Shown piece after piece: positions 5,356 through 60,468 of a stretch of 64,000 nt of DNA. Within the stretch, counting starts at the first letter, position 1; each line of letters opens with the position of its first letter. Made by a program: the position numbers and the translations under genes. Below the pieces are notes generated by a model. That model made no database searches. It was not told the origin of the DNA and worked only from the letters and a program-made list of their open reading frames with translations. Source of the DNA: Desulfobaccales bacterium (GTDB lineage: Bacteria; Desulfobacterota; Desulfobaccia; Desulfobaccales; 0-14-0-80-60-11); contig JBKQLU010000005.1 in assembly GCA_052326585.1 (NCBI GenBank), positions 471-64,470 of the forward strand, given 5' to 3'.

Positions 5356-5708
5356 TGGCCCGGTCTCGGAAACTCAGGCAACCAGCGCTCAGGACCCGCC
5401 TCAAGAAGAACGATCTGGTGGAGGTGATCGCCGGTAAGGAACAGGGCAAGACTGGTAAGATCCTCAAGGTCATTCGCGAAAAAAACCAGGTACTCCTGGA
5501 AAAGATCAACATGATCAAGCGCCACACCCGGGCCAGCCCCACCACCGGGCAGGGGGGCATCGTCGAAAAAGAGGGGCCGATCCACGTCTCCAAGGTGAAG
5601 CTGGTTTGCCCTAAATGCGCCACAGCTACCCGCTTCGGCCTGGGCCGGACCGGCGAAGGGAAAAAGGCGCGGGTCTGCGGGAAATGCAAGGAATTTATTG
5701 ATGGCTGA
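5355..5708 (+). CDS. rplX: 50S ribosomal protein L24
   Basis: KOW motif '[24 protein letters not shown]'. TGATG overlap with the rplN stop. Carries C-x2-C...C-x2-C ('CPKC...CGKC'). Confidence 0.94.
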
Positions 5709-58590: not shown

Positions 58591-58632
58591 AAAATAAAAA
58601 AGCCGGATGGCCTCCCTCAAGGCAACCCGGCT
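58591..58632 (-). terminator. intrinsic terminator / riboswitch expression platform
   Basis: Minus strand reads AGCCGG-20 nt-CCGGCT followed by TTTTTTATTTT, about 40 nt upstream of the ATG at 58550. The 5' arm overlaps the aptamer 3' end. Confidence 0.6.
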
Positions 58633-58698
58633 GTCTCAATCGGACTAAAAGACCCGTGGCTTTCCGTCCCCGCCTCGCGACGGGTTTGGCTTTTTCGC
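58621..58698 (-). promoter_or_regulatory. c-di-GMP-I (GEMM-I)-like riboswitch aptamer
   Basis: Minus strand reads GCCAAACC-CGUC-GCGA-GGCG-GGGACGGAAAGCC-ACGGGUC...GACAGCCGGGUUGCC. This matches my memory of the GEMM-I core (GCAAACC, GNRA-capped hairpin, GGGACGCAAAGCC, second hairpin). Confidence 0.65.
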
Positions 58699-58901
58699 TA
58701 TCATACAATTAGCCATTAGTTTAACTATGTCAAGCCATTTTGAGGAATTGCCAAAAAAATGGAGTCTCATTATAAAAGATCTGCCACAGGCTCCGCGTCC
58801 CCGCTCGCGGCGGATTTCGCTTTATCAGCAATTTTTCCCGCCCCACCGCCAGGTGCCGATCCTGGCAGGTCAGTCTGCAATATGCCACAATGGAAAAATG
58901 G

Positions 58902-59953: not shown

Positions 59954-60122
59954 AATGTCATTCTGAGCGCAGCGAAGAATCTAGTGCGGCGCATTCTAGA
60001 CCCTTCGCTGCACTCAGGCTGACAAGGAAATCGGGGTTGGCAATAGCTTCTAGAGATTTGGCGCCGCGGGAAAAGATATTGGCCGGCCCGGTGGCCCAGG
60101 CAGTCACCGCCACCTCTTTTTG
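59954..60122 (+). repeat. ~170-nt repeat, copy A (long hairpin plus T-run)
   Basis: Starts 'aatgtcattctgagcgcagcgaagaatctag'. The arm pairs with 'ctagacccttcgctgcactcag'. Ends 'cacctcttttt'. Roughly three-quarters identical by eye to copy B. Confidence 0.85.
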
Positions 60123-60299: not shown

Positions 60300-60468
60300 A
60301 ATGTCATTCTGAGCGCAGCGAAGAATCTAGTCTCTGCGCCCTCTAGACCCTTCGCGTCGCTCCGACTGACAAGGCAATCAGGGTCGGCAACAACCCCTAG
60401 AGTTTTGCTCAGCGGAGAAAGATATTGGCCGCCCCAGTGGCCCAGTCAGTCACAGCAACCTATTTTTT
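60300..60468 (+). repeat. ~170-nt repeat, copy B
   Basis: First 32 nt identical to copy A. Shares 'ctagacccttcgc', 'ctgacaagg', 'gaaagatattggcc', 'gtggcccag' and 'cagtcac'. Ends 'acctatttttt'. Confidence 0.85.

Follow-up and report, generated by a model that had tools for sequence, protein, structure and literature searches.

Gene content of the locus

The locus lies on the minus strand of the window, by which is meant the whole 64-kb stretch of DNA that was analyzed, and consists of a leader followed by two genes for proteins with signal peptides (Table 1). The domain of the first protein was assigned by Pfam (PF22825, E 1e-31), and the second gene starts 35 nt past the first. The C-terminal tails of the two proteins are nearly identical. 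Both had been described in a first-pass annotation of this DNA as PEP-CTERM proteins. Gene 2 exceeds the PF07589 cut-off of 20.7 with 26.2 bits, and gene 1 stays below it at 10.5 bits; the tails read PLPA rather than PEP and are of the VPLPA-CTERM flavor. Of the NCBIfam sorting-domain models, VPLPA-CTERM (TIGR03370) came closest for each protein, with scores (18.1 bits for gene 2 and 11.2 bits for gene 1) below the cut-off of 25.35 in both cases. Exact copies of gene 1 were found only on short metagenome contigs.

The gene upstream of the leader encodes an outer membrane protein (OMP) β-barrel and has its own terminator, and a terminator scan listed a further hairpin behind gene 2; the leader therefore heads a separate two-gene operon. 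Elsewhere, the window carries ribosomal-protein, secY, rpoA, and nuo genes, and its RpoA is 85–89% identical to proteins from metagenome-assembled genomes (MAGs) named Desulfobaccales or Deltaproteobacteria. Ten of the larger ORFs in the window were sampled; these included a PAS histidine kinase and a sigma-54 activator, with no exosortase, GGDEF, or EAL gene among the ten. The gap between the OMP gene and a transporter gene holds two copies of an element of ~170 nt that are 79–100% identical. Each copy opens with an imperfect 29-nt palindrome (TGTCATTCTGAGCGCAGCGAAGAATCTAG / CTAGACCCTTCGCTGCACTCAGGCTGACA), and the appearance is that of a small repeat or mobile element.

Table 1. Features of the riboswitch locus and its surroundings (window positions)
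Feature	Positions	Strand	Remarks
~170-nt element, two copies	59954-60121 and 60300-60467	+	Between OMP and transporter genes
Terminator of OMP gene	58936-58911		
Decayed copy of aptamer 5' half	58796-58826, extending to ~58751	-	~130 nt upstream of aptamer; 26/31 bases identical
Possible promoter	58733-58703	-	Perfect TTGACA 58733-58728, 17-nt spacer, weak -10 AATTGT 58710-58705; by eye
Alternative -10, TATGAT	58705-58700	-	Non-standard 22-nt spacing from TTGACA
Aptamer	58699-58617	-	Full model covered; cmscan
GCCAAACC	58690-58683	-	Read from sequence
G, equivalent of Vc2 G20	58690	-	Unpaired, immediately 5' of closing pair; RF03167 and RF01051 consensus alignment
Closing pairs	C58689-G58664, C58688-G58665	-	cmscan alignment and covariation
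P1a, 6-bp hairpin CCCGUC/GGCGGG	58684-58669	-	GCGA tetraloop 58678-58675
GGGACGGAAAGCC	58670-58658	-	Read from sequence
A, equivalent of Vc2 A47	58663	-	Mismatch to RF03167 G at model position 37; RF01051 consensus A
P2 (= P1b)	58661-58651 with 58636-58624	-	cmscan and covariation
Second hairpin, ACGGGUC...GAC-AG-CCGGGUU	58657-58624	-	Ends in GACAGCCGGGUU, 58635-58624
C, equivalent of Vc2 C92	58622	-	Junction base, cmscan alignment; also within terminator 5' arm
Intrinsic terminator	58632-58591	-	Stem 58632-58601, U6AU4 58601-58591; RNAfold MFE
Terminator stem AGCCGGGU.GCCUU/GAGGC.AUCCGGCU	58632-58601	-	8 + 5 bp, 1x1 internal loop, GAGG loop
Shine-Dalgarno AAGGAGG of gene 1	58564-58558	-	Read from sequence
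Gene 1, 229 aa	58550-57861	-	Signal peptide, HpiC1-like (CBM-like β-sandwich) domain, PLPAPAWLLGSGLLGLLGWRKLRKS sorting tail
Gene 2, 203 aa	57825-57214	-	Signal peptide, uncharacterized domain, VPLPASVLLFGSGLLGLLGWRKLRKS tail (PEP-CTERM/VPLPA-CTERM type)
Terminator-like hairpin	57185-57161	-	11 bp then T6; terminator scan; closes two-gene unit

Identification and structure of the aptamer

When the whole window was scanned with cmscan against Rfam 15 at gathering thresholds, a single riboswitch match was returned, which lies in the leader of gene 1. The family reported was RF03167 (c-di-GMP-I-GGC), with 71.7 bits (gathering score 59) and an E value of 5e-15, and the same result was obtained on the sub-region alone; this places the element in the GEMM-I clan (Rfam CL00126). 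The cmscan output gives only the best family per clan, and a second clan family that also exceeded its own gathering score at the same position, its name and score not displayed, is very probably RF01051, for which the gathering score is 35 bits. A covariance model of our own, R1, gave 86.4 bits for the aptamer, and none of 100 shuffled versions of the window contained the core pattern, so that the match is far above chance. The first-pass annotation had named a GEMM-I-like aptamer on the strength of a series of sequence strings in this leader, all of which were found on the minus strand, and the cmscan match and the shuffles bear out its assignment. It had proposed a run with RF01051 as a check; the scan against Rfam gave the expected clan and position, with RF03167 rather than RF01051 as the best family.

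To examine conservation of the structure, 44 distinct aptamers with the same C-G closing pair as that of the window (see below) were aligned, and the consensus obtained with RNAalifold consists of the two expected hairpins. Across their 19 pairs, 97% of cells are paired, compared with 30–49% in controls in which the partners were slid, and compensatory changes are seen in 10 of the 19. The alignment contains 109 double-change cells, against a shuffled mean of 29, and its covariation score of 0.403 was reached in none of 500 shuffles, with slid controls at 0.06–0.10. Two hairpins, P1a and P2 (P1b), that flank conserved junction strands, as in the c-di-GMP-I class, are thereby supported by covariation. 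The RNAalifold consensus of these 44 aptamers contains no P1 helix. P1 is very weak in the window as well, where the covariance model alignment contains G58696-C58621 as the sole standard pair and flags the other P1 pairs as non-standard. In the RF01051 model, P1 is not annotated as paired; the short P1 of the window is therefore not unusual.

An inverted closing pair shared by related aptamers

The pair beside the ligand pocket is C58689-G58664 in the window, as opposed to G21-C46 in Vc2 of Vibrio cholerae and a G-C pair in the consensus. Relatives were sought with a pattern scan of one genome per species (GTDB), in which the 3' G was fixed, whereas the two bases before CAAACC and the position equivalent to G20 were left free. 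This returned 120 stretches, many of them chance matches within genes, and 52, the aptamer of the window included, had a complementary P1a hairpin. In 51 of these 52 hairpin-validated aptamers CAAACC is preceded by GC, a 3' G always being partnered by a 5' C. The G20 equivalent is G in all 52 and the A47 equivalent is A in 51. As C at position 11 always occurs with G at position 36 (51 of 52), the pairing register is fixed and A58663 is the equivalent of A47. A register with G58664 as the intercalating base, as in a GGC-like aptamer, is ruled out by the same co-occurrence. Both Rfam models score the C-G substitution positively (":" in the match lines), and it thus falls within known variation of the family.

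Aptamers with the C-G pair were found in ~50 other genomes, the hosts of which are mostly Desulfobacterota, with a minority from the Campylobacterota, Acidobacteriota, Planctomycetota, Ca. Vecturithrix, and Poribacteria and one Photobacterium. Rfam was run on 21 such aptamers, and RF03167 was the best family for 20 of them (59.7–74.9 bits). The lone exception was L027, a close relative, which was assigned to RF01051 with 55.6 bits. L027 and a second aptamer from the Campylobacterota, L025 (RF03167 best, 59.7 bits), carry GGGUUGUA in place of GGGUUGCC after P2; the C92 equivalent appears to be U in these two, which might affect ligand recognition.

It is conceivable that the C-G-pair aptamers (that of the window and at least 51 others, mostly from Desulfobacterota) are a functionally distinct subclass in which the inverted pair, stacked against the pocket, shifts affinity or specificity, but this is considered distinctly unlikely. 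Were it true, the inverted pair could, for example, favor another cyclic dinucleotide or a different range of c-di-GMP concentrations, and the PEP-CTERM surface proteins would answer a signal other than plain c-di-GMP.

Ligand pocket and family assignment

A47 of Vc2, which we take to intercalate between the bases of the ligand, occupies the position directly 3' of the closing pair. Vc2 numbering was transferred to the model columns from the Vc2 structure together with PMC6140456, according to which G20 reads the first ligand base and C92 forms a Watson-Crick pair with the second ligand G. When the element is aligned with the consensus of RF03167 and with that of RF01051, its pocket triad reads G58690, A58663, and C58622. 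The combination G/A/C is the canonical c-di-GMP signature, from which c-di-GMP is predicted as the ligand.

The consensus of RF01051 (...AAaGGCAAAcc...ggGACGCAAAgCc) was obtained via L027 and that of RF03167 (...AAAGGCAAACC...GGGACGCGAAgCc) from the cmscan alignment of the window. Within the conserved core they differ only in the base that follows the closing pair, A in RF01051 and G in RF03167 (GACGCAAAgCc and GACGCGAAgCc, respectively). On the basis of these consensus sequences, G at model position 37 would be the feature that defines the GGC family. This G is absent from the aptamer of the window, in which the corresponding base is A58663 and the cmscan match line is blank.

The rank of RF03167 as top family, both here (71.7 bits against 59) and in 20 of 21 relatives, would suit a true c-di-GMP-I-GGC member that senses a signaling molecule other than c-di-GMP. 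The paper defining the GGC variants reportedly proposed that these might recognize different signaling molecules; to our knowledge, the ligand of the RF03167 variant is not established. Such a sensor is nevertheless very improbable at this locus, as the base after the closing pair is A, not G, both here and in 51 of the 52 hairpin-validated aptamers, and the G that precedes A58663 is taken up by its pair with C58689, with perfect co-occurrence of the two. The high score is better explained by similarity of P2, the sequence of which we read as shared within the lineage. With RF03167 best in 20 of 21 cases, the model systematically captures canonical-pocket aptamers of the Desulfobacterota-type lineage. 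At 20 loci (L005 to L120) RF03167 was the best family in spite of an A at the diagnostic position, and routine annotation would mislabel them. A scan of viral contigs for true GGC-type cores (GGGACGCGAAGCC) gave no match, and the fetched loci contained no canonical core and no GGC core.

The first-pass annotation had left the identity of the ligand open, with reference to Geobacter-type variants, and had suggested that the position equivalent to G20 be inspected. In GEMM-Ib sensors of 3'3'-cGAMP, A replaces G20 (PMC6140456; PMC9481103). The window has G at 58690 and not the GEMM-Ib A, so that c-di-GMP is predicted, and the question is less open than it was. A cGAMP sensor, or a promiscuous c-di-GMP/cGAMP sensor as in Geobacter, could be entertained in a relative of the Desulfobacterota, the phylum in which GEMM-Ib is found (PMC6140456; PMC8835794); it is, however, most improbable given that G58690 is invariant across the C-G subtype and that Vc2, which has G20, binds cGAMP far more weakly than c-di-GMP (wild-type KD of ~10 μM versus picomolar; PMC6140456).

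An overlapping terminator and the proposed mechanism of switching

The expression platform is an intrinsic terminator, a GC-rich hairpin followed by a U tract, that has a strand in common with the aptamer. The hairpin has a free energy of -24.4 kcal/mol on its own and is part of the minimum free energy (MFE) structure of the leader in RNAfold. Its 5' arm (58632-58619) is made up of the 3' strand of aptamer P2, the junction with the C92 equivalent, and the 3' strand of P1. The arm thus lies wholly inside the 3' part of the aptamer, and the aptamer and the terminator are mutually exclusive. This arrangement, in which the 3' end of the aptamer doubles as the 5' arm of the stem before U6AU4, was as the first-pass annotation had described it. 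The same compact overlapping terminator was found in 20 of the 52 aptamers, that of the window included. A simple terminator scan did not list the hairpin, presumably because the scan counts uninterrupted stems and this one is broken by a 1x1 internal loop.

The predicted free energy of the leader is -55.4 kcal/mol when the terminator forms (MFE) and -39.1 kcal/mol when the aptamer is enforced. As the terminator fold is favored, termination is the predicted default and ligand would be required for read-through, so that the element would act as an ON switch; the competition proposed earlier for this leader is in this respect supported by the modeled energies and by the strand overlap. In the absence of ligand, the nascent leader would fold into the terminator, and RNA polymerase would stop short of gene 1. 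Bound c-di-GMP would be read by G58690 and C58622 with A58663 intercalated, and the aptamer would retain the 3' strand of P2, the junction, and the short P1, leaving the 5' arm of the terminator unavailable. Transcription would then proceed into the two genes for secreted proteins with a tail of the VPLPA/PEP-CTERM type. High c-di-GMP, as in the sessile or biofilm state, would accordingly be expected to yield more of these surface or matrix proteins.

Translational control was considered and dropped, the Shine-Dalgarno sequence being located ~27 nt past the end of the U tract and in no stable structure. A possible promoter was identified by eye upstream of the aptamer, and either option for the -10 element would put the start of the transcript near the aptamer 5' end. 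A consensus promoter scan of the region reported none. Strings resembling sigma-54 elements were also spotted by eye and discarded owing to wrong spacing.

Taken together, the leader of this two-gene operon is read, with a probability of roughly 0.8, as a c-di-GMP-I (GEMM-I) riboswitch that acts as a transcriptional ON switch in a bacterium probably belonging to the Desulfobaccales.

A decayed copy upstream of the aptamer

A stretch that resembles the 5' half of the aptamer is found on the same strand upstream of it. Beyond the part with 26 of 31 identical bases, further common strings (UCUUUUA and UGAGAC, then a U7 run) follow. The local alignment score is 37, compared with 14.4 ± 2.2 for shuffles and a maximum of 30 in 2000 of these. 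No further place in the window matched when it was searched in whole for other aptamer-like stretches by local alignment. R1 gave the copy 14.9 bits (E 0.14), and Rfam returned nothing at this position at E ≤ 10. The stretch is probably non-functional and probably what is left of an earlier tandem riboswitch. Tandem c-di-GMP-I riboswitches have been described (PMC9481103), and the second aptamer-like stretch ~130 nt upstream on the same strand is reminiscent of these; since the upstream copy of the window is decayed and goes unrecognized by Rfam, the locus is at most a former tandem.

An intact tandem, an arrangement apparently lost from the window, was seen in a Ca. Vecturithrix MAG (L055), in which two aptamers of the same subtype (5371-5449 and 5603-5679) lie 230 nt apart before one PEP-CTERM gene, the first with its own overlapping terminator.

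Conservation of the association with PEP-CTERM genes

Five other aptamers of the C-G type precede genes for PEP-CTERM proteins (at L005, L035, and L115 and twice at L055). In the case of L115, from a Desulfobaccales MAG, a homologue of gene 2 with 48–49% identity lies directly behind the aptamer and an overlapping terminator. Association of this kind has also been reported for Methylophaga nitratireducenticrescens GP59, where four c-di-GMP riboswitches precede PEP-CTERM/VPLPA-CTERM genes (PMC12530212). The homologues of gene 1 and gene 2 were examined from the opposite direction. Nine loci with homologues of gene 1 (HpiC1-like) had no upstream GEMM element at the Rfam gathering scores, and R1 gave no match at E ≤ 1 at any of 59 metagenome loci that carry gene 2 relatives, many of which have short upstream flanks. 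As the homologue loci mostly lack the element, the link between riboswitch and genes is specific to the lineage; a c-di-GMP riboswitch before a PEP-CTERM protein is a recurring arrangement, yet one that is not constant in either protein family.

At two of these nine loci a GEMM-like element was noted. The first (L123, 1495-1569) is diverged, precedes an HpiC1-like paralogue (42% identical) from the same metagenome assembly as the window, and scores 49.9 bits with R1, below the Rfam gathering scores; it keeps the C-G closing pair and has mismatches in both hairpins. The second (L124, 3349-3448) is a borderline match to RF01051 (36.1 bits, gathering score 35). It likewise has the C-G closing pair, is found downstream of an HpiC1-like gene, between this and a radical-SAM/SPASM gene, and overlaps a called ORF of 105 amino acids that may be a miscall.

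The scarcity of the element at homologous loci, the near absence of P1, and the decayed copy 130 nt upstream, which shows that riboswitches do decay at this locus, are what would be expected if the aptamer itself were decaying and no longer regulatory, with the terminator acting as a constitutive attenuator or the operon promoter lying downstream of it. This is considered unlikely. No conserved core nucleotide has been lost, the two hairpins are preserved, the aptamer ranks by score near the top of the compared set, and its overlap with the terminator follows a design found in 19 other genomes; a short P1, as noted above, is not out of keeping with a model that annotates no paired P1. A functional ON riboswitch is therefore retained as the preferred reading.

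Comparison with known systems and significance

With the c-di-GMP-I riboswitches (RF01051; Vibrio cholerae Vc2) the element has in common the two hairpins, the strings AAAG.CAAACC and GGGACG.AAAGCC, a GNRA tetraloop, and the G/A/C triad. It differs from the RF01051 consensus in its closing pair, which is C-G and not G-C, in the very short P1, and in a P2 without the receptor-like CUAAG/UAUG motif. RF03167 is the model with the highest score, and its P2 (AcGGguCu...aGacAGCCggGcUGCc) is very similar in sequence to that of the window; the two are nonetheless set apart by the A of the window where RF03167 has a conserved G. The c-AMP-GMP riboswitches of Geobacter (GEMM-Ib) resemble it in fold, clan, Desulfobacterota host, and use as transcriptional switches before extracellular or surface functions, but have A in place of G at the G20 equivalent. 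The likeness to Methylophaga GP59 (PMC12530212), a member of the Gammaproteobacteria in which c-di-GMP riboswitches are likewise found directly before PEP-CTERM/VPLPA-CTERM genes, is one of gene association.

Published cases of c-di-GMP riboswitches before PEP-CTERM genes already exist. The aptamer is real but ordinary, and little novelty is left. What there is consists of a possible effect of the C-G pair on affinity or specificity and of the over-capture of canonical aptamers by RF03167. Since RF03167 outscores its parent family for a set of aptamers with canonical pockets, a best match to "c-di-GMP-I-GGC" is no evidence of an altered ligand unless the diagnostic nucleotide is checked. The compact unit of aptamer and terminator would lend itself to in vitro work. 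For the uncultured Desulfobaccales-like bacterium itself, the locus would add one more link between c-di-GMP and surface or matrix proteins of the exosortase type.
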